From IMG/VR virus record IMGVR_UViG_2698536476_000008: a stretch of DNA of 64,000 nucleotides. One strand, written 5' to 3'. How positions within the stretch are numbered: position 1 is the first letter of the stretch; each line of letters begins with the position of its first letter. This document shows, in pieces, positions 2,723 to 62,221 of this stretch. Below the pieces are notes generated by a model. It worked only from the letters and a program-made list of their open reading frames with translations. It had not been told where the DNA came from and made no database searches. Both the position numbers and the translations under genes were made by a program. The stretch is from a virus (lineage: Duplodnaviria > Heunggongvirae > Uroviricota > Caudoviricetes).

Positions 2723-4152
2723 TCCTCCTCATACGAAATATTAAAGGTGGAGTTTTCTGTATCCAGATAAACGAAATCGTAAAAGCCGTTGGACTCATTC
2801 CACTCGACAAATTCCAGATAAAAGTCGCGGAAATAACCCAGCGTTTCGATAAATGCCCAAACGTCTTTTTTCTTGATTAGGATGTACTTGCCGACACGGT
2901 TCGGATCAAAGAAAGTTGAGTCACGCCCAAATTTTGTTTCCAGTGCCGACTTCAGCTCATCAGTCACGTTCTCAATGGTCAGGCTTGCCGATATCCGCCC
3001 AGTGATGGTGATCTTAAAGGGGAGTTTTCTGACCTCTTTATACGAGAATTTCTTGTTCAACTCATTCGGCACCTTCTTAAAGGCAGCCAGGATCATTTCT
3101 TCAAGCTCTGACTGGCTTTTGTTTGGATGCCATCCTGAAATAAATATCTTATTGATATTCCGAACATTATAAGCACCATCTAATTTCTCTTGCTGGCCTT
3201 CGCCCCATGCCTTTACCCAGGACAGTCCCGGGATGTTACGCACCAGAAAATACGTATAGTCCCCGCCCCATACGACCTGATCATCATAGGCAAGGTAATA
3301 TTGTGCACGATTACGTGTGATCTCCGTTGTTTCGGCATCGGTACCTGCGGTTATGGGTGTCGTTGTCTTAACTGAAATCAAATTAGCTAAATTAGCCGCA
3401 GAATCGACAGGAGTCAGGTTTTGGCCAGCAACCAGGGTTATATCTCCGTTGGTGCACCATACCTTAAGTGTAATGGTCGAGCCTTCTGGCGGTATTTGCC
3501 CAATTAGCCCATCACCGAATCGAACCCCCAACTGCTCGGATGGCTTATAAAACTCAACGTAGACCTGGCTTTTACTACCGGCTAACCGGAACATAGTGCT
3601 GGAAGACCACTGCGTGGTCTTACCATCGGTCGTCACGAATACTTCCAGCTTATAGCAGACAGCAGTGAGAGCCTTTGATAACACGACTTCCAGAAATTCT
3701 TTGGCTGCCGTAACGGTATATGTCACCTCCTGGATTTCCAACTGTGCCACTTCTACCGTACCGGTGCCGTCAACCAACCTGCATACATCCATAGTCATGT
3801 AAGGGTACTGGTCGTCAGATATTAAAGGCATATTTTTGGGGATTACCGCTGGGGCATCTTCACTTGTGGCGGTGATCTCAATCATCCCCGATGACGGTGT
3901 TGGCTTGGTACCAACGTAACTATTCGTTTCTGCCGCTGCCAGGATAGAGGAACGCCGCGTCGCGGTCGATATAAAGCCTTCAGCCAGCGCCGCATCGGCA
4001 TACTGAAAGCACCTGTAGACAATCTGGGTAATAAACAATGTCAGCATCGAGACAAATTGAGAGCCGACAAACTTCGACCAGAATGAATCTTTCTCGACAA
4101 GCTCTTCAAACTCTGCACGAATACTGTCTTTAGTCGGTGTTGTTTTACTCAT
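2719..4152 (-). CDS. Baseplate J-like protein (477 aa)
   Basis: ORF track; size and position between wedge-like and fibre genes; overlaps neighbours by 4 bp. Confidence 0.45.
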   Translation of the reverse strand: MSKTTPTKDSIRAEFEELVEKDSFWSKFVGSQFVSMLTLFITQIVYRCFQYADAALAEGFISTATRRSSILAAAETNSYVGTKPTPSSGMIEITATSEDAPAVIPKNMPLISDDQYPYMTMDVCRLVDGTGTVEVAQLEIQEVTYTVTAAKEFLEVVLSKALTAVCYKLEVFVTTDGKTTQWSSSTMFRLAGSKSQVYVEFYKPSEQLGVRFGDGLIGQIPPEGSTITLKVWCTNGDITLVAGQNLTPVDSAANLANLISVKTTTPITAGTDAETTEITRNRAQYYLAYDDQVVWGGDYTYFLVRNIPGLSWVKAWGEGQQEKLDGAYNVRNINKIFISGWHPNKSQSELEEMILAAFKKVPNELNKKFSYKEVRKLPFKITITGRISASLTIENVTDELKSALETKFGRDSTFFDPNRVGKYILIKKKDVWAFIETLGYFRDFYLEFVEWNESNGFYDFVYLDTENSTFNISYEEE

Positions 4153-4508: not shown

Positions 4509-7500
4509 TCAACTCTCGCGTAGTCATTCATCAACGGATCATCAATTGACAGTGGCACCGTGCGCATAACGCCCGGTTGAGGCGTGCTGACCTTTACGAC
4601 AGTTCCCTGGCCTTTCGCCGAGTCTTTAGTGTGCTCTTCAATCCTGGCAAGCAATGAGGTCATCTGCGCAAACAGCCGCTTCGTTTCACCATCAAGTGAA
4701 ACGGTATTATCAGCCAACTGCATTGTCGGCTTGGCACCGGAGCCGCCAAGGTCACTAATAACCTGTCCGTCTATCTGCATACGACCGGTTGGTTGCTGCA
4801 AATCGTTGGCGGCAGTCGTCACCTGGGACGTGGAGGCTGGTTCAGGCGCATTATTTTTCCGCATCCCCGGCGAGTTGCGGAGTTTATCAAATAGTCCATC
4901 AATCCCCATTTGTGCGCCGAGTTGGTCAAAGTAACTTGAGTTGCTGGCCACCGGACGCGCCTCTTCAACTGGCATCGGAGTATCAACATACACATTGCCA
5001 GCTGCTGTTGCGGTCCCCTTCCCTCGTGCACGTTCTTCGAGCGTTCCCTGAACGACTTCCCGACGCATACCCCGGCCATTCATGAATTTGTTGACCAGAT
5101 CGTTAACGCCAACAGCATTGCCAATTTTGTCTACCAGACCGCCTTTCTCAAACGGGCTATCACCAGGGGTAAACGCCAGGCCAGTAGACTGATCGATAAC
5201 AGCGTTATCAGGCAGTGGTCCCCTCACTCCATATTGCGCCCCACCCTGTGCTCCTGCTCCAGGTGTATAGATTTCACCACCTAAATAGCGAGCACGATGA
5301 GTATTGACCTTGATCGCGTACTCACGGTTTTCTTTCGATAAGTCACCTGTGCCTTTTTTCCACTTATTGATAGTGCCAAACCCAGCATTATATGCAGTGA
5401 TGGCCTCGTTTAAGTCTCCATTGGCTTGCTTCAGATATTTGCTCATGAGAAGAGCCGCAGCTTCTGCCGATTTCACAGGATCAAACGATTCACCTTCAGC
5501 TAAGCCAGTCTCTTCACGAGCAATCCCCGTGAACTGAAACATCCCCAGAGCACCGGTTTGGGATTTTGCATACGGATTACCACCAGATTCAGTTGCAGCA
5601 ATCGCGTAAAGAGTGCCTTCTGGAAGACCGTATTTATTCTCTAGTTCGGCAAAATACGGAGCCAACTTATCGAGATTTGCCTTACCTTCAGCGCCAAGAC
5701 TTCCGACTTTTACATCCAAGTTGCCATTGTTGTAGGTATCCGCAGCTTTCTGAATGTCATTCCTGGTGCCAGTGGTATTAAGCGACGATGATGACGAGCT
5801 ATTTTGACCAATAGCTTTATCAATTTTCTGCAACGCGCTATTGCCCGTTTCTACGGCATTTGCATTGATAATCTGATTGGCAGTTTGTTTAACTGTTTTA
5901 TTGCTATCTTTCGCTGTGTCCAGTGCCGCATTTATCACGCGGGTGGCAATATTACTCTGTTTGGCATCGGATTCAGTTTTAGAATCAGACGTCTCCTGGT
6001 GGCTATTAACCGGAGCTTTTAACTCTGGAGTGATTTCTTTCGCATTAGCCTCGCCGATCGGATTGGGTATTTTTGATACAATCATTGCCGCAGGGGTATT
6101 TTTAACGGCATCAACCGCTGCATCTAATGCTTTACCTGGTAAATTTTTAACCCCATCCCAAATATTACCAGCCGCCTCTTTAATGTGTTTCCCTGGGTTC
6201 TTAATGAAATCAATTGCACTATCAATTGCATCACTGAAAACCTGTTTCAGGTTATCGACAGTAAAGAAGTCTTTGATGGCATCCAGCTTTTCAAGCAGCT
6301 TATTAGATGTATCGCTAAACCATGCTGAAACAGCATCACCAATCTTTGCTGTGTAATCATCGAACTTGGTAGAAATGGTGTCGCCAAGGTTAGAAATATA
6401 TGTTTCTAAGTTGGTAATCCCACTATCAATGGCCTGGGCAATACTTTCCGTCGAAAATGATTGCAACATATTGCCGATATCCTCAAATCCAAGTGATTTG
6501 AGAACCTCACCAATGGCGCTGCTAATACCAGATACCAGTCCCCCCATATCAAGAACATTAGCTAACGTATAAGCGGCTTTTTGCTGGAATGATGGATCTT
6601 GTCCTGATTTAAGCCCAAACGCTCGACGTTGCGCTTCTGTATCATTCCAACCGGTTACCGCATCATAAATACCTCCAGCCACTGTGCCGACTAGGGGAAT
6701 TGCGCGTAACGCCCCTTTACCAACTGCCTTTAATCCAAGTTTACCTGCTGCCCGGGCAGCCAAATCTCCGCCTTCATGGGCGAGAGTCTTCTTGCCACCA
6801 CCGCGTAGCACTCCTACAAGTTTCTTTGCCCCCAGAGCGCCAAAAGCGAGTGCTCCAGCTTTTTTCAGCATGCCACGCCCCATTAACAACGACGCGACGC
6901 CACCGGCCCCCTTCCCTAACAGGCTAAATAGTTTGGACAGCAAGCCGCCCTTCTTTTTCCCGGTGTTTTTGGCTATCTGATCAAGGGCGCGGAGAATCTT
7001 GTCATTGCCCTCTTTAATTTCGCTGGTCTGCTCCTGAAGTTCCTGAACCGTCCGTTTTTGGGTGTTAACCTGAACGACATCGGCACTATTTTGCGATTTA
7101 CGCCTAAAAAAACCTTTTCTACGGCTGTTATCGTCATTGCCACGAATCACATCGGCAATAGACTTTCTGGCACCATTAAGCGATCCACCAACTTCTTTTG
7201 ATATCCCGCCAAGCTCCTTCCCTGCTGCCCACAATGGACCAGCAACGGCATAACCTAACGCATCGACGGCACGAGTCTCTGAAGGGTTACCTATGCCTTC
7301 AGCTACTTTTGACAGTTTTTTTAATAAACCTGATTCAGCATTTAGACGCTCATCATCCTCTTTGCGCCTGGCCTTTTCAGCACGTTCAGCACGGGCATCT
7401 TCCGCTGCGGCCTTACTCCCTGACTTTCCAATAAAACGACCACGCGCATCGCGTTGGTTTTGGCTTTTTTGCGCACCGCCTTTTTGACCGAACATTTCGC

Positions 7501-11307: not shown

Positions 11308-11404
11308 TATAACCTCACCTGCCTTATAACTCATTTAGGGTACATATTTTCGCCTTTAAAAAAAAGAGGTTATTAGATCCAATTGTGTATTTATTAAGCA
11401 TGCA

Positions 11405-11420: not shown

Positions 11421-11589
11421 GTATTTTTAAGTCACGAATGCTATCTTTTCACATCATATTGACCTTTTAATCGTTCAGGCTTATAGTTCCGCCGTCGTAG
11501 CAAATTCTGCGACCGGGTTTAGCAGCCTGAATACTTACGCGGACAACCGCAGATTTCCGATATTGCGGTATTTTTGTGTCCGTAAACCA

Positions 11590-11670
11590 CGTTACGCCCG
11601 AATTATGGTGGGGCGTGATGGGGAGGCTTCGGCCTGCTGGTTTCGTAAGTGCCAGTCTGCTAACCCCGTC
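11590..11670 (+). ncRNA. Candidate c4-like immunity RNA (coordinates approximate)
   Basis: Block TATGGTGGGGCGTGATGGGGAGGCTTCGGCCTGCTGG conserved with 62083-62125, with compensatory changes around a TTCG-loop hairpin; sits between operator and icd as in P1 immI. Confidence 0.35.
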
Positions 11671-11732
11671 ACGTCCTGCCACCTGTTTAGCAGCGGGTCG
11701 CAGGTTGTTTATCAACTTACGAGGCCGTAACT

Positions 11733-15130: not shown

Positions 15131-15253
15131 TACAATCGTTGCGGGTGCTTGAGGCTATCTGCTTCAGGCATTACCCGAAAAGCAGATAGAAGAAAGCCCC
15201 AGATAACATCACGCGTCCTGCAAGACGCTTAACATTAATCTGAGGCCATATCT

Positions 15254-15460
15254 ATGCTTAGCATACGTAGATTAGCCTCTTACCGACCAAAAGGTCAAGG
15301 AGAAGTAGGCTATGAAGCAGCAAAAAGCGATGTTAATCGCTCTGATCGTCATCTGTTTAACCGTCATTGTGACGGCACTGGTAACGAGGAAAGACCTCTG
15401 CGAGGTACGAATCCGAACCGGCCAGACGGAGGTCACTGTCTTCACAGCCTACGAATCTGA
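15254..15460 (+). CDS. mok-like overlapping reading frame upstream of and overlapping hok
   Basis: 68-aa ORF in a different frame overlapping the hok-like gene, as in hok/mok/sok loci. Confidence 0.35.
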   Translation: MLSIRRLASYRPKGQGEVGYEAAKSDVNRSDRHLFNRHCDGTGNEERPLRGTNPNRPDGGHCLHSLRI

Positions 15461-28400: not shown

Positions 28401-29298
28401 GCACTGGAAAAACATTACTATTTATAAACTTTCTCGTGAGGCGGATCTGACCGACTTAGAAGATAAAAAGAAAATGATCCTTTTCACGCCATGCGGTAGT
28501 CAGGATATGGCCAAGTTCGGTTTTGTATCTCCATTTGGTGATAATTCCGAAGTTATCGCTATGCATGGAAATGGTTTTATCCTTGTTGAAGCAAAGCGCG
28601 AAACAAAAATTCTTCCCCCGCCGGTTATCCAGCGAGCTATTCAAGAAAAAATTGAAAAACTTGAGCAAGAACAAGCGCGTAAACTGAAGAAAACAGAGAA
28701 GGACTCCCTGAAAGACGAAGTTCTGCATTCTCTTCTGCCACGGGCTTTTTCAAAGTTTTCTGTTATCCAGGCGATCTACGACGGTTCAACTAAACGTATC
28801 TATATCAATGCCAGCGCGCGGCAGGCAGAGGATATGCTCGCGCTTATGCGTAAGTCTCTGGGTTCTCTTCCTGTTGTTCCCCTGAGTGTTGAAAATCCCA
28901 TTGAATTAACGCTGACCGACTGGGTACGTGATGGTAGTGCTCCACAGGGATTTCAAATGGGGGATGCGGCAGAACTTAAGGCAGTGCTTGAGGATGGCGG
29001 TATTGCCCGAGTGAAAAAGCAGGATTTGGGAAGCGATGAAATTTCCACACACCTGGAAGCTGGCAAGCTCGTTACTAAGTTGGCACTCGACTGGCAGAAC
29101 CGCATTAAATTTACACTGGACCATAACTTCAGCCTTACCAGCGTCAAATTTGCGGATGAATTGCTTGAGCAGAACTCTGATATTGATAGTGAAGATGTTG
29201 CGCAGCGACTGGACGCAGATTTCTTCCTGTTGACCAGTGAAATTTCGTGCCTGGTTGATGCTCTGGTAAATGCCCTTGGTGGAGAGGCTAAGCAGTGA
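28393..29298 (+). CDS. hrdC: RdgC-like recombination-associated protein
   Basis: RdgC-like length and pattern from ATG 28393; directly upstream of dmt as in P1. Confidence 0.7.
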
Positions 29299-31313
29299 AA
29301 GAGCTGTGCTATGGATCTGTTTGCAGTGGAATTGAAGCCGCGAGTATTGCCTGGGAACCGTTGGGTATGCGTCCGGCGTGGTTTGCTGAAATCGAGCCTT
29401 TTCCATCTGCCGTTCTTGCGCACCGCTGGCCCCATGTCGCCAACCTTGGCGACATGACAAAACTTGCCAAAAAAGTCCTGGCTGGGGAAATCGAATCCCC
29501 TGATGTGCTCGTCGGGGGTACGCCTTGTCAGGCATTCAGTATCGCGGGCTTACGTGGTGGGCTTGATGATGAACGCGGCGCGCTAACTTTGAAGTATGTG
29601 GAGCTTGCAAATGCAATTGACGACAAACGGTCTGAGTCCTTCCTCAAACCGACAGTTATCGTCTGGGAAAATGTCCCAGGAGTCCTGTCATCGGCAGATA
29701 ACGCCTTCGGATGTTTCCTTGCCGGATTGGCTGGAGAAGATGCGCCATTTGAACCAGGTGATCGACCTGAATCAGGAAAAAGTAACGCGTTCTGGCGGTG
29801 GGATGGCAAAACCGGTTGCCATGCTCCAAAGTGGCCGCAGTGTGGTTGTATTTATGGACCGCAGCGAAAGGTGGCCTGGAGAATCCTTGATGCCCAATAC
29901 TTCGGAGTGGCACAACGACGCCGACGCGTGTTTGTTGTCGCAAGTGCTCGAACAGACCTCGATCCCGCAACGGTACTTTTTGAGTTCGAAGGCGTGCGCC
30001 GGAATATTGCGCCGAGCAGAGGCGAGGGGAAGGAAACTACCAGATATACTTCAAACATCGCTATCAGATCTTGCGATGATACAAACATAGTTGCCATGGC
30101 ACATGGGCAAGGAGGGGCTGAGATAAAAACCGATAATTCGGCACCAACTTTGACATGTAACCATGAAGCACCAATTGTATTGCTCGTCGACGGTAGAATG
30201 CGCCGTCTTATCCCTGTCGAATGTGAAAGGCTGCAAGGTTTTCCTGATGGACATACATTGATCCCTACGGAAAAGCGTAAAAAAGTTTCTTCAGATGAAC
30301 TGGCATACCTTCGCAAAAACTATCCTGATTTGAGCGAAGAAGAGGCCGCGATGCTTGCAGCTGACGGACCGCGTTACAAAGCGATCGGCAATAGTATGGC
30401 GATACCAGTAATGCGCTGGATTGGCGATCGGATTGCCAAGGCTGCATGTCGGCAGAAGGAAGGGAGTGAAACAAAAGAGCGAAAAGTTAAACCAGCGGCA
30501 GAATTCGAACGGTCCATATTCAAATGGGCTGGTGGAAAATTTGGTGTTCTGGAACAAATCTTTCGCTATTTGCCAGAAGGGAAGCGCCTGATTGAGCCTT
30601 TCGTTGGTGGCGGAGCTGTCTTCATGAATGCCGGATACCAGGAAAATCTGCTAAATGATGTGAATGCTGACCTGATTAACTTTTACAAGACTCTGCAACG
30701 CGAGGCGCATTCACTTATCACTCTGGCACATCGTTTCTTCCAGGACTACAACACGCAGGAAGGATACCTGGCAGTACGGAATGCGTTTAACAAACAAGTC
30801 TATGATGATTTACATCGCGCAGCGGCGTTTTTGTTCCTGAACCGACATTGTTTTAACGGATTGACGCGTTACAACCAAGCCGGTGAGTTCAATGTCGGTT
30901 ATGGGAAGTATAAAACTCCGTATTTCCCATTGCAGGAGATGGAAGCCTTCCTTGGTGCGGAAGGGCGTTCTGAGTTTGTATGTGGTGATTTTGCTGCGGT
31001 GATTGAAGCTGCCGGAGAAGGAGATGTCATCTTTTGTGATCCGCCGTATGAACCGCTCCCAAATACAGAGGGATTCACGAACTATTCCGGTCATGACTTT
31101 AAGTTTGAAGAGCAAAAACGCCTGGCGTCTCTGTTGACGGATGCTCATCGCCGAGGTGCAAAGGTTCTCATTACTAACAGTGGCGCGCCAAACATCAGAG
31201 AACTTTATCAGGACAGTGGCTTCAGAGTGGAACCTCTTTTTGCCAGACGTTCTGTGTCTTGTAAGGGGGACACTCGAGGTGTTGCTCATGACGTTATAGC
31301 AATATTGCTCTAA
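29295..31313 (+). CDS. dmt: Bifunctional DNA methyltransferase (C5-cytosine domain fused to Dam-like N6-adenine domain)
   Basis: GTG start overlapping hrdC stop; [12 protein letters not shown] and ENVPG (C5-MTase) in N-half; FKWAGGK and DPPY (N6-adenine MTase) in C-half. Confidence 0.85.
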
Positions 31314-31331
31314 TAAATTTATTAGTGTAAT
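31304..31331. promoter_or_regulatory. Bipartite (inverted, overlapping) C1-operator-like site
   Basis: ATTGCTCTAATAAATTT followed by inverted half AAATTTATTAGTGTAAT; overlaps dmt stop. Confidence 0.65.
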
Positions 31332-31497
31332 ATCGCATCAATGAATCGTGATTTATAGAGCGATTTAGCTGTTAGCCGCGACAGGCGCGGCGGCAAGTAT
31401 GGCGGGGTAGTGACTCCTTCCCCCTCATGACGCCGAGTTGCCAGGTTGACCATACGCCTAAGTGGCAACACCGAAGTGCGTTACGAGCTTCCAGTTT
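31321..31497 (+). ncRNA. Candidate small RNA between operator and terminator (speculative)
   Basis: About 175-nt non-coding segment bounded by C1-operator-like site and a terminator; contains TATGGCGGGG resembling the c4-like block. Confidence 0.25.
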
Positions 31498-31523
31498 GCC
31501 CATCTTCGGGTGGGCGTTTTTTT
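31498..31523 (+). terminator. Rho-independent terminator
   Basis: GCCCA-TCTTCGGG-TGGGC followed by T7. Confidence 0.6.
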
Positions 31524-31704
31524 CAGGGTTTTCGTCATGGTTAGCGACTTTGCGGCGGTTTAGAAACTGACCATTAAAGTAAATGCAAACGATGATCTGA
31601 TGATGGTAGCGGCATAAGAAGCCAGACGCCACGGGGTATGAGTCGTCCCCCGTCAAAAAATCGACCGCAGAGTGTCCCCGTCTGTGTATTAGGGAACGGG
31701 GAGG

Positions 31705-31785
31705 CACAACAGGTAAGGGCGCTGGTGTGATTAACCAGATGAACGAGAAGGGGCCATCTGTTGGTCAGCGTCCTTTCCTGTTGCG
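31705..31785 (+). repeat. Long-stem hairpin element E
   Basis: Arms CACAACAGGTAAGGGCGCTG / CAGCGTCCTTTCCTGTTGCG with about 41-nt loop, followed by TCTTCTTTTC. Confidence 0.55.
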
Positions 31786-31988
31786 TCTTCTTTTCAGCGT
31801 AACAGCGGTGCTTAACAGCACTTTGGGTACAGTTCCACGAATTTACGGGTATATCCCGTCATGCTGAAAGCGCTAATCACGCTGGAAGCCAGGGTTATGC
31901 ATCCCCTGTTACCGAATTGCAGCCAGGGCGCGGTGCGCCGAAAAGCATACGGAGGTGGAAGCCCTCGCCGGAGACGTACCCGGCAAGT

Positions 31989-32064
31989 GATGGTGTAGCT
32001 CAGCGGTTAGAGCGGTTGACTGTTAATCAACGGGTCGATGGTTCAAATCCATCCACCATCGCCA
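31989..32064 (+). tRNA. tRNA-Asn (anticodon GTT)
   Basis: Cloverleaf by eye: acceptor GATGGTG/CACCATC, anticodon loop CTGTTAA, T-arm GGTTCAAATCC, encoded CCA. Confidence 0.9.
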
Positions 32065-32066
32065 AT

Positions 32067-32142
32067 GCCGGTTTAGCTCAGTTGGTAGAGCGCCTGCCTT
32101 GTAAGCAGGATGTCAGCGGTTCGATTCCGTTAATCGGCACCA
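32067..32142 (+). tRNA. tRNA-Thr (anticodon TGT)
   Basis: Acceptor GCCGGTT/AATCGGC, anticodon loop CTTGTAA, T-arm GGTTCGATTCC, encoded CCA. Confidence 0.9.
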
Positions 32143-32143
32143 G

Positions 32144-32230
32144 CACAACAGGTAAGGGTATTTTGCGACGTCGGAGATCGCCGAGCTTGGCAGAGGGTTC
32201 GAATCCCTACGAAGTACCCTTACCGTTGTG
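32144..32230 (+). repeat. Long-stem hairpin element A enclosing a T-arm-like motif
   Basis: 16-bp stem CACAAC(A)GGTAAGGGTA / TACCCTTACCGTTGTG enclosing 54 nt that include GGGTTCGAATCCC; starts 2 nt after tRNA-Thr. Confidence 0.55.
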
Positions 32231-32350
32231 ATGAATGCGCAGGCTGATGCGCGAAAGACATTGCAGCTATTGCGGAAAAGAGCTGTTCGGCGGGGCAATT
32301 AAACGCCCGTGAGAGTCTGAAATAACCGCAAGCCGGAGATCAGCACCGGT

Positions 32351-32429
32351 CATCACAACACAACAGGTAAGGGCATTCTCCCTTATGGGGCTTGGCTTAA
32401 ATGCATCGAGTGCTCTTACCGTTGTGATG
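32351..32429 (+). repeat. Long-stem hairpin element B
   Basis: Arms CATCACAACACAACAGGTAAGGGC / GCTCTTACCGTTGTGATG. Confidence 0.55.
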
Positions 32430-32567
32430 AAGTGCAGCTCTTTGAAGCAACCAGAAGATAAGCATCTGGCTTCACAACATAAACCGCAGGAACGACCAAT
32501 AAACGGTAGTCCGTATGGAGAACACCCCGTTGAGGAAGAGGCCTGGCCGGAACCGTAACCGGCACTA

Positions 32568-61886: not shown

Positions 61887-61903
61887 TTTGCTCTAATAAA
61901 TTG
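61887..61903 (+). promoter_or_regulatory. C1-operator-like site upstream of second icd-ant locus
   Basis: TTTGCTCTAATAAATTG. Confidence 0.6.
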
Positions 61904-62069
61904 TGTTTTTTAGCTACCGATGTTACATTGAACCTGACCTCTTGCGCCTTGAGGCATTTTCGGTTTATGCTTATCAGGCACCTCATTAAAACGGGTGCCG
62001 GGATTGGCCTCCCGCTTAAGTCTAAGGCGATACAGACGCCGCTCGCGTCTTTTTTTGTATCGGCGTACA

Positions 62070-62150
62070 CGCACACCTCTACAATGGTGGGCTGTATGGG
62101 GCTACCTTCGGGTAGGCTGGTTACCTTGGACGCCAGTAAGGCCAACTCCG
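62070..62150 (+). ncRNA. Candidate c4-like immunity RNA, second copy (coordinates approximate)
   Basis: AATGGTGGGCTGTATGGGGCTACCTTCGGGTAGGCTGG conserved with 11604-11645. Confidence 0.35.
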
Positions 62151-62221
62151 TACAGTCCACCGCCAGCAAGATTGGTCTCTTCTGCGGTGGTTACATACCA
62201 ACGTCTAAGGAGGCTGCCAAT

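Follow-up and report, generated by a model that had tools for sequence, protein, structure and literature searches.

DicF, a functional small RNA (sRNA) of the Qin prophage (locus ydfABC-dicF-dicB; Rfam family RF00039), is 53 nucleotides (nt) long, ends at the Qin terminator, owes its 5' end to RNase E, and binds Hfq (PMC5069750), its precursor being trimmed by RNase E (PMC5069750; PMC9438474). Together with SroC and StxS it represents the Hfq-type sRNAs derived by early termination from leaders or 3' untranslated regions (UTRs), whose parent transcripts continue past the sRNA by read-through (PMC9438474; PMC7547250). Two other phage systems invite comparison, namely the cis-acting antiterminator RNA put of phage HK022, which has ~70 nt in two stem-loops and no pseudoknot (PMC9378689), and the C4 RNA of phages P1 and P7 (RF01695), a small structured RNA found downstream of a C1 operator-like site. 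The present study concerns a 64,000-nt stretch of a Caudoviricetes genome (IMG/VR record IMGVR_UViG_2698536476_000008; hereafter the window, numbered from its first letter), in which an earlier note had proposed a stand-alone, possibly c4-like small RNA with a bipartite C1-operator-like site, overlapping the stop codon of dmt, on one side and a strong terminator about 190 bp downstream on the other. We describe this interval as the head of the ban operon and report that it carries a structured RNA domain, here named R1, which is shared with the Qin prophage and is followed by an exchangeable stretch, the cargo, and an intrinsic terminator. Our searches of the accessible literature found no experimental work on the ban leader RNA of P1.

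Positions 30800-32300 are ~97% identical to P1, P7, RCS47, and JL22, and the window is a P1/P7-like punavirus. The bipartite site is real: the 17-nt C1 operator consensus ATTGCTCTAATAAATTT occurs with 0 mismatches at 31304-31320 (+), enclosing the TAA (31311-31313) of the dmt open reading frame (ORF), and a second copy with 2 mismatches overlaps it in inverted orientation at 31315-31331 (-). In all, 11 C1 operator-like sites were counted in the 64-kb window against a chance expectation of 0.32. The P1 record (AF234172) marks at this place a divalent operator, Obanab (formerly Op72ab), the promoter P1ban, a predicted second promoter P2ban, and a misc_feature labelled 'dicF-like region' (68791-68892, which is window ~31428-31529), and the P7 record annotates the operators as in P1; operator, promoter, and label are thus already known from the P1 record. 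The coordinates of P1ban were carried over from AF234172 via a three-way alignment of P1, P7, and the window. A generic promoter scan missed P1ban because its -35 element matches at only 3 of 6 positions, and the same scan flagged no further sigma-70-like promoter in 31000-32400. According to the annotation, C1 would repress transcription that starts within or just after the operator; from the position of the -10 element (31328-31333) the start would lie near 31340 and the terminated product would measure ~184 nt.

Two overlapping inverted 17-bp C1 operators at the dmt stop are what defines Op72/Oban, which sits upstream of tRNA-Asn, tRNA-Thr, tciABC, and ban, and in the window the terminator is likewise followed by 465 nt without an ORF, the transfer RNA (tRNA) genes for Asn and Thr, tciABC, a third tRNA gene, and ban, more than 2 kb from Pban. 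By sequence comparison, the locus is the Op72/Pban operator-promoter of the P1/P7 ban operon together with the first 184 nt of its transcript, and its identity as the head of that operon is close to certain. Since Pban is the promoter of an operon and the terminator lies within that operon, one would be dealing with a terminated leader, or with a 3' UTR belonging to dmt, and not with an independent gene, and the proposal of a stand-alone RNA has to be given up. The expectation of a discrete RNA of ~150-200 nt fares better, being plausible from a C1-controlled promoter placed 184 nt before a terminator with no ORF in between.

The relatives of this leader were sought by sensitive blastn against 5426 complete Escherichia coli genomes. 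Besides 477 P1-like copies, most of them plasmid-borne, window positions 31376-31473 were matched at ~82% identity in 4411 of the 5426 genomes (~80%), and the match in K-12 is the Qin prophage, between ydfC and dicB (L003 3001-3097, 97 nt). It stops 25 nt 5' of DicF, which Rfam places at L003 3122-3173; the P1 and Qin sequences are alignable from CCGCGA to GUG(G/A)CAAC and unrelated from there to the U-run. As the common part ends before DicF, the conserved unit is the domain upstream of DicF, to which we gave the name R1, and the 'dicF-like' homology, as judged from these alignments, is to R1 and not to DicF itself. Further copies were gathered from viral contigs and from a scan of one genome per species, which added Escherichia albertii, E. 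ruysiae, Shigella, Citrobacter, Serratia symbiotica, Trabulsiella, Erwinia tracheiphila, and Izhakiella. A search of the window with a covariance model derived from the aligned copies gave a single copy (101 bits, E = 1.8e-32), and R1 is present once per phage. No Rfam family matched R1 with either the P1-type or the Qin-type sequence as query, and no function is assigned to it in the searchable literature. Ayreon, a functional lambdoid phage, has R1 ~290 nt downstream of a pL-like promoter beside cI, in Qin it stands behind ydfABC in a DicA-repressed operon, and in P1 it begins 35 nt from the C1-repressed start; the positions in Ayreon and P1 place R1 within a repressor-controlled early transcript in both phage types.

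The domain is modelled as three hairpins (hairpins P1, P2, and P3) and a loop pseudoknot within ~100 nt (Table 1), with an extra 8-bp closing helix, P0, in the lambdoid copies; an unconstrained free-energy fold of the Qin copy recovered P0 to P3. Standard pairs fill 93.3% of the paired cells in an alignment of 41 sequences and 94.9% among 61 model-aligned sequences, and in both alignments the value drops to 33-56% when the partners are slid by 1-3 columns. Twelve pairs are changed on both sides in either alignment, and none of 500 shuffles reached the observed values. Six of the nine pairs of hairpin P3 covary, with stems such as GUUGCCA/UGGCAAC in phage P1, GUUGUCA/UGACAAC in Qin, and GUAACCA/UGGUUAC in Izhakiella. 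Hairpin P2 has taken at least nine distinct stems (e.g., GGGG/CCCC, CUGGG/CCCAG, CAGGUG/CACCUG, and CCCGGG/CCCGGG) around a loop that is C/U-rich throughout (UCCUU, CCUCC), and the R1 differences between phage P1, P7, and the window are almost confined to it. Within the pseudoknot, 54 sequences have U-A at the pair 31398/31454, while 3 have C-G there and another 3 have U-G.

Some further structures were considered for R1. A P7-type copy in a viral contig (L014 4662-4828, -) has a 29-nt insertion in hairpin P2, made of a G-run and a duplicated GACUCC segment, which extends the hairpin to -27.7 kcal/mol, so that large insertions can be accommodated in P2. Pairing of the P2 loop (UCCUU) with a downstream GAGGA into a second pseudoknot was dropped because, as judged by eye, it is present in Qin-type copies and a few others and missing in Erwinia, Izhakiella, Trabulsiella, and Serratia. 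A by-eye likeness to 5S ribosomal RNA or tRNA, with the look of a four-way junction, found no support from Rfam or ARAGORN, and neither ARAGORN nor the Rfam models for tRNA and transfer-messenger RNA (tmRNA) recognized R1 as a member of those classes. Inspection by eye for an alternative, antiterminator-type pairing between R1 and the terminator revealed nothing conserved.

What follows R1 is as regular in plan as it is variable in sequence. A hairpin with a U-run stands 45-127 nt after R1 in 28 of 29 cargo classes, the lone exception being a decayed Shigella copy, and the cargo in between is DicF, the P1 type, or one of at least ten others, which include DicF seeds on other terminators and, in phage Ayreon, a class marked by a long GGCGGUACCAG stem. 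Of the 14 cargo loci tested, L030 alone reached the Rfam threshold for DicF. The P1-type cargo consists of a small hairpin (31473-31491) and the linker CAGUUU, and it has the shortest distance between R1 and terminator and the longest U-run. In Erwinia, Serratia, Trabulsiella, and one viral copy (L185 ~4660-4760, L156, L180, L052), a Shine-Dalgarno sequence and a start codon lie in the terminator hairpin (AGGAG...AUG UUC UAC CG..), so that a small ORF begins within the terminator stem after R1, which suggests translation-coupled control of termination in those four copies. In the lambdoid contigs L099 (742-1359) and L060 (4732-5353, -), the unit of R1, cargo, and terminator lies ~300 nt upstream of isrK-C4 on the same strand, and in Ayreon (L196) isrK-C4 (1540-1728, -) lies ~2.3 kb from the R1 module (3988-4124, +) on the opposite strand; the two are neighbours there, yet not homologous.

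The leader of the window is composed of a 5' hairpin, R1, the P1-specific hairpin, an A/U-rich linker, and a strong terminator with U7. That terminator, a 7-bp G+C-rich stem (31498-31515) with a UUCG loop and a run of seven U at 31517-31523, bears out what had been proposed for it, with a hairpin energy of -12.8 kcal/mol (z = -3.7) that none of 200 shuffles equalled. The combination of a GC-rich terminator hairpin, a long U tail, and an A/U-rich single strand (CAGUUU) before it is that of the 3' end of an Hfq-type sRNA. No credible ORF was expected in the interval, and the ORFs that exist between operator and terminator (47, 32, and 33 amino acids on the plus strand; 49 and 111 on the minus strand) gave no significant Pfam match, the sole hit being DUF1614 under the cut-off at E = 0.32, and are interrupted by 1-nt and 3-nt indels among the near-identical sequences of P1, P7, and the window. 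Phage D6 (L197 2400-2520) follows the window collinearly, at 94% identity, once the terminator hairpin (31495) is reached and has unrelated sequence with its own hairpin upstream, without dmt and without R1. As the similarity to D6 begins at the terminator, the terminator is a recombination joint, and as D6 keeps the terminator and what follows it, R1 is dispensable for a P1-like phage.

Taking the operator and promoter identity, the homology and fold of R1, the terminator, and the modular order of R1, cargo, and terminator as established, we hold it slightly better than an even chance that the ban operon begins with a C1-repressed, terminated leader RNA of ~184 nt that is analogous to DicF, and that its terminator also gates read-through into the operon. 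In a lysogen, C1 bound to the two overlapping operators would keep the leader RNA off. Upon infection or induction, polymerase would start near 31340, and late dmt transcripts, too, may include the same stretch, as their 3' UTR. At 31523 most polymerases would halt, releasing a leader RNA of ~184 nt that is built like an Hfq-type sRNA at its 3' end and that RNase E may trim, by analogy with DicF. Polymerases that read through would produce the tmRNA-like RNA, the tRNAs, tciABC, and ban, and since the ban operon is reached by read-through, the terminator would also set the dose of everything downstream. R1 would serve as the shared cis module, either guiding the folding or processing of the terminator-proximal RNA or tuning the passage of the terminator, and the variable cargo would carry the phage-specific regulatory sequence. 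The leader is a plausible lytic-phase sRNA or attenuator and not a c4-like immunity RNA; that it acts in trans is a separate proposition, which we rate as perhaps somewhat short of even. RNA-seq data for an hfq mutant infected with P1vir offer a circumstantial point, since at 20 min ban, trnA, and dbn were over-induced and most replication genes under-induced (bioRxiv 10.64898/2025.12.28.696737). All three over-induced genes lie downstream of the 31498-31523 terminator, and the pattern fits, without proving, an Hfq-dependent event at the leader.

The DicF locus is the nearest counterpart, with R1 in common (~82% over 97 nt), the same order of R1, a short variable stretch, and an intrinsic terminator, and the same setting of a repressor-controlled early operon with downstream genes expressed via read-through. 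Like DicF, the P1 cargo lies downstream of R1 and ends at an intrinsic terminator in an early operon, but where Qin has the DicF part, consisting of the seed UUUCUGGUGAC, which pairs with ftsZ and other targets, and the terminator hairpin, P1 has 50 nt of unrelated hairpin and terminator, the R1 of Qin lies in the 3' UTR behind three ORFs whereas that of P1 begins 35 nt from the promoter, and the closing helix P0 belongs to the lambdoid copies and not to P1. The P1 RNA was accordingly rejected as a member of the DicF family: RF00039 gave no match in 31250-32000 at E <= 10 (threshold 48 bits; Qin control 76.7 bits), and the seed UUUCUGGUGAC is missing from 31468-31523. With SroC, StxS, and DicF the P1 RNA has in common that it would end at an intra-operon terminator with U7 and an A/U-rich linker and that its parent transcript would continue by read-through. 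With put, R1 shares a compact conserved fold in a nascent early transcript, located after a repressor-controlled promoter and before terminators, but the architectures differ (two stem-loops in ~70 nt versus three hairpins and a loop pseudoknot in ~100-125 nt), and the R1 model found nothing in the immunity region of HK022 (24000-32500); R1 was therefore not assigned to put.

The comparison with put nevertheless frames one of the rival explanations, by which R1 would be a cis-acting processive antiterminator, HK022 put-like or boxA-based as in rrn operons, and the 184-nt RNA a by-product. Nascent R1 would then modify the polymerase, which would pass the terminator 45 nt on and resist Rho over the ~800 untranslated nt before ban. 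R1 does lie just past repressor-controlled early promoters in P1 and the lambdoids, as do nutL and putL, the terminator right after it must be passed for ban or dicB to be expressed, and the scan of 31000-32400 offered no other sigma-70-like promoter; the ~800-nt untranslated stretch, with the tmRNA-like RNA and the tRNAs, would be exposed to Rho, and the loops of R1 are far more conserved than its flanks and the cargo, as for contact with a conserved host machine. Just 5' of R1 the lambdoid copies also have a conserved GUGCUCU(C)UU / GUGCGCUUCC (e.g., L003 2977-2990 in Qin and L196 3988-4001 in Ayreon), which we take to resemble boxA (UGCUCUUUA) and of which the P1-type copy shares only CGUG. 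Yet R1 is related to put neither in sequence nor in structure, is present as a single copy per phage, and is coupled to its terminator with a tightness (~130 nt) foreign to put and nut sites; moreover, the Qin terminator after R1 demonstrably terminates and yields the 53-nt DicF (PMC5069750). We regard an antiterminator as unlikely. We give a similarly low probability to the simplest account, namely that the terminator belongs to dmt and doubles as a plain attenuator of Pban, with R1 as a mobile, selfishly conserved element or a structural spacer and no role in trans for the RNA. The terminator is indeed the first after the dmt stop, the target searches described below gave none, and D6 keeps the terminator and the downstream part with unrelated sequence in place of R1. 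Against this account stand the purifying selection and compensatory changes in R1 across Escherichia, Citrobacter, Serratia, Erwinia, Trabulsiella, Izhakiella, and P1-like plasmids, the persistence of the coupling between R1 and terminator through the turnover of cargos, and the fact that the homologous module of Qin gives a functional sRNA.

A c4-like antisense immunity RNA acting on the icd/ant leaders, as the earlier note had suspected, is very improbable. The suspicion came from a 10-mer, TATGGCGGGG, that is indeed present at 31398-31407 and differs by one base from the C4 RNA start TATGGTGGGG at 11604, and it might draw on the closeness of the R1 module to isrK-C4, ~300 nt apart, in some lambdoid prophages. 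The likeness does not extend beyond chance, however: six matches to the 10-mer with at most one mismatch occur in the window against 3.2 expected, nine of 100 shuffles do as well, and in the R1 model one part of the 10-mer falls in a pseudoknot strand and the other in the P2 stem. The Rfam models C4 (RF01695, clan CL00128) and c4-a1b1 found nothing in 31250-32000 even at E <= 10, whereas the two true C4 genes of the window score 70.8 and 75.9 bits (family threshold 45 bits). The leader shares with C4 the position downstream of a C1 operator-like site, but its fold is another and it lacks the a1/b1 and a2/b2 target repeats; and because both ban promoters are covered by a perfect operator, the RNA is expected to be off in lysogens, where an immunity RNA must work. 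A small protein encoded on either strand is less probable still. ORFs of 47 (+) and 111 (-) amino acids exist, and JL22, Ayreon, and other records annotate hypothetical coding sequences over the homologous stretch, but Pfam yielded no significant match, near-identical sequences differ by 1-nt indels in the U-run and in P2, and the variation tracks base-pairing and not codon positions. Both the c4-like and the protein-coding readings can be considered essentially excluded on this evidence. The window itself has two immI-like RNA loci, at 11481-11686 and 61978-62167: the first comprises C4 at 11601-11686, c4-a1b1 targets at 11481-11533, and an upstream C1 operator-like site at 11404, and the second comprises C4 at 62080-62167, preceded by isrK at 61978-62055, with an upstream C1 operator-like site at 61887.

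Several results weigh against a regulatory leader RNA analogous to DicF. The search for complementary targets that the earlier note had called for gave nothing beyond chance across the 64-kb window: a duplex scan of both strands returned only self-antisense hits, and exact complements to the loops of P2 and P3, to the cargo, and to the 5' hairpin (one 12-mer, one 11-mer, and one 10-mer) were at chance level. A duplex-energy screen of 35 translation initiation regions of the E. coli dcw region, that of ftsZ among them, had no power, as its DicF control ranked ftsZ only 16th-20th. Thermodynamically, neither R1 nor the whole leader stands out (z-scores of -1.2 to -1.9), the P1-type R1 lacks helix P0, the pseudoknot is supported by one covarying pair and hairpin P1 by no compensatory change, and many of the aligned R1 sequences are closely related, so that the counts of changed pairs overstate the independent events. 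The terminator, finally, could simply belong to dmt.

Table 1 Features of the ban leader and of the adjoining transcription unit (window coordinates)
Feature	Position	Strand	Remarks
C1 operator Oban-a (former Op72a)	31304-31320	+	Perfect consensus, overlaps dmt stop; homologous to protein_bind features of AF234172 and P7
Sigma-70 promoter P1ban	31305-31333	+	-35 TTGCTC 31305-31310, 17-nt spacer, -10 TAATAT 31328-31333
C1 operator Oban-b (former Op72b)	31315-31331	-	2 mismatches; overlap with Oban-a makes the operator divalent
Leader 5' hairpin (AAUCGUGA...GCGAUU)	31342-31367	+	Predicted fold, -7 kcal/mol; specific to the P1 type
R1 conserved structured RNA domain	31375-31472	+	Homology to Qin (L003 3001-3097), covariation, covariance model
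R1 hairpin P1	31375-31391	+	Predicted; conserved, without compensatory change
R1 pseudoknot	GUAUGG 31397-31402 with CCAUAC 31450-31455	+	Predicted; CCAUAC inside the P3 loop
R1 hairpin P2	31404-31423	+	Predicted; hypervariable, C/U-rich loop
R1 hairpin P3	31437-31469	+	Predicted; near-invariant 19-nt loop GGUUGACCAUACGCCUAAG
P1-type cargo hairpin (GAAGU-GCGUUACGA-GCUUC), then linker CAGUUU	31473-31491	+	Predicted fold; kept in P1, P7, and the window
Intrinsic terminator GCCCAUC-UUCG-GGUGGGC + U7	31497-31523	+	Left edge of the similarity to phage D6
RNA resembling the coding piece of tmRNA	31527-31800	+	Startless tag frame ANDDLMMVAA-stop at 31585-31617, then hairpin/pseudoknot and long hairpin
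tRNA-Asn	31989-32064	+	Same transcription unit
tRNA-Thr	32067-32142	+	Same transcription unit

The first product of read-through from Pban would be an orphan RNA that resembles the coding piece of a tmRNA. The sequence of ~31527-31720 recurs, conserved at 70-84% identity, across 259 phage records that span unrelated families, among them Ackermannviridae (Det7, phiMAM1), Schitoviridae (PD205), Drexlerviridae (CS01), Skatevirus (KFS-SE2), and the lambdoid HK633, in which the element stands behind PR'; it usually lies beside tRNA genes, and the records inspected had no RNA-feature annotation for it. Alignment showed an invariant UAAAUGCAAACGA followed by a startless frame of ten codons that varies at the codon level and always resembles an SsrA tag, reading (with a stop codon after each) ANDDLMMVAA in the window, ANDDLMLMAA in CS01, ANDDVVLMAA in PD205 and KFS-SE2, ANDNAYLMVA in phiMAM1, ANDNTFLAVA in Det7, and ANEEMYLAVA in HK633. 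The stop is followed by a hairpin and a pseudoknot with compensatory changes. The Rfam model tmRNA_permuted scored the element below threshold in the window and three other phages (22-33 bits versus a cut-off of 47). ARAGORN called permuted two-piece tmRNAs, with the acceptor piece 175-291 nt upstream, in related viral contigs whose tags have 10 residues; it found no such piece within 500 nt in the P1-type group, and a consistent long-range acceptor helix across the phages was not found either.

Other observations were made in and beyond this part of the operon. The sequence AGGGUUUUC just after the terminator (31528-31536) is complementary to GGAAGCCCU before tRNA-Asn (31957-31965), also in D6, though not in the other phages, and the helix could possibly close the whole 430-nt RNA without ORFs. 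Behind tRNA-Thr, at 32146-32232, lies a tRNA-like structure that neither ARAGORN nor Rfam called, with a 15-bp stem (CACAACAGGUAAGGGU / ACCCUUACCGUUGUG) around a T-arm-like GAGGGUUCGAAUCCCUA; its motif ACAACAGGUAAGGG recurs at the start of the long hairpin (31712-31795), and other phages have it conserved in their tmRNA-like element. Downstream of the tRNAs, positions 32219-32300 share 99-100% identity with phages of the lambdoid and Stx2 kinds (IME207, mEp460, and Stx2a phages) and represent a short mosaic patch that P1-like and lambdoid phages have in common. Elsewhere in the window, the sok antitoxin RNA of a hok/sok-type plasmid addiction module was found at 15143-15317 (112 bits).

What is new in this locus is the homology of the leader to an uncurated, pseudoknotted domain supported by covariation, the coupling of that domain to a terminator with exchangeable cargo, and the cargo variant that P1 has of its own. 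We tentatively propose, as a possibility rather than an expectation, that R1 represents an uncurated class of phage cis-acting RNA that always stands in a repressor-controlled early transcript just before an intrinsic terminator, where it would decide between read-through or antitermination and the release of a small RNA and would serve as a launch pad for exchangeable cargos. R1 is common to lambdoid prophages and to plasmid prophages of the P1 kind, and ~80% of E. coli genomes have it. What is meant by 'dicF-like' would be redefined, the conserved unit being the pseudoknotted domain with its terminator and the small RNA a swappable cargo, and R1 would be a compact, testable system in which compensatory mutations are available in P3 and in the pseudoknot. 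For P1, such a leader would explain how Pban, far from ban and with a strong terminator right behind it, yields both a lytic regulatory RNA and, past a metering terminator, the downstream RNA genes and the helicase.

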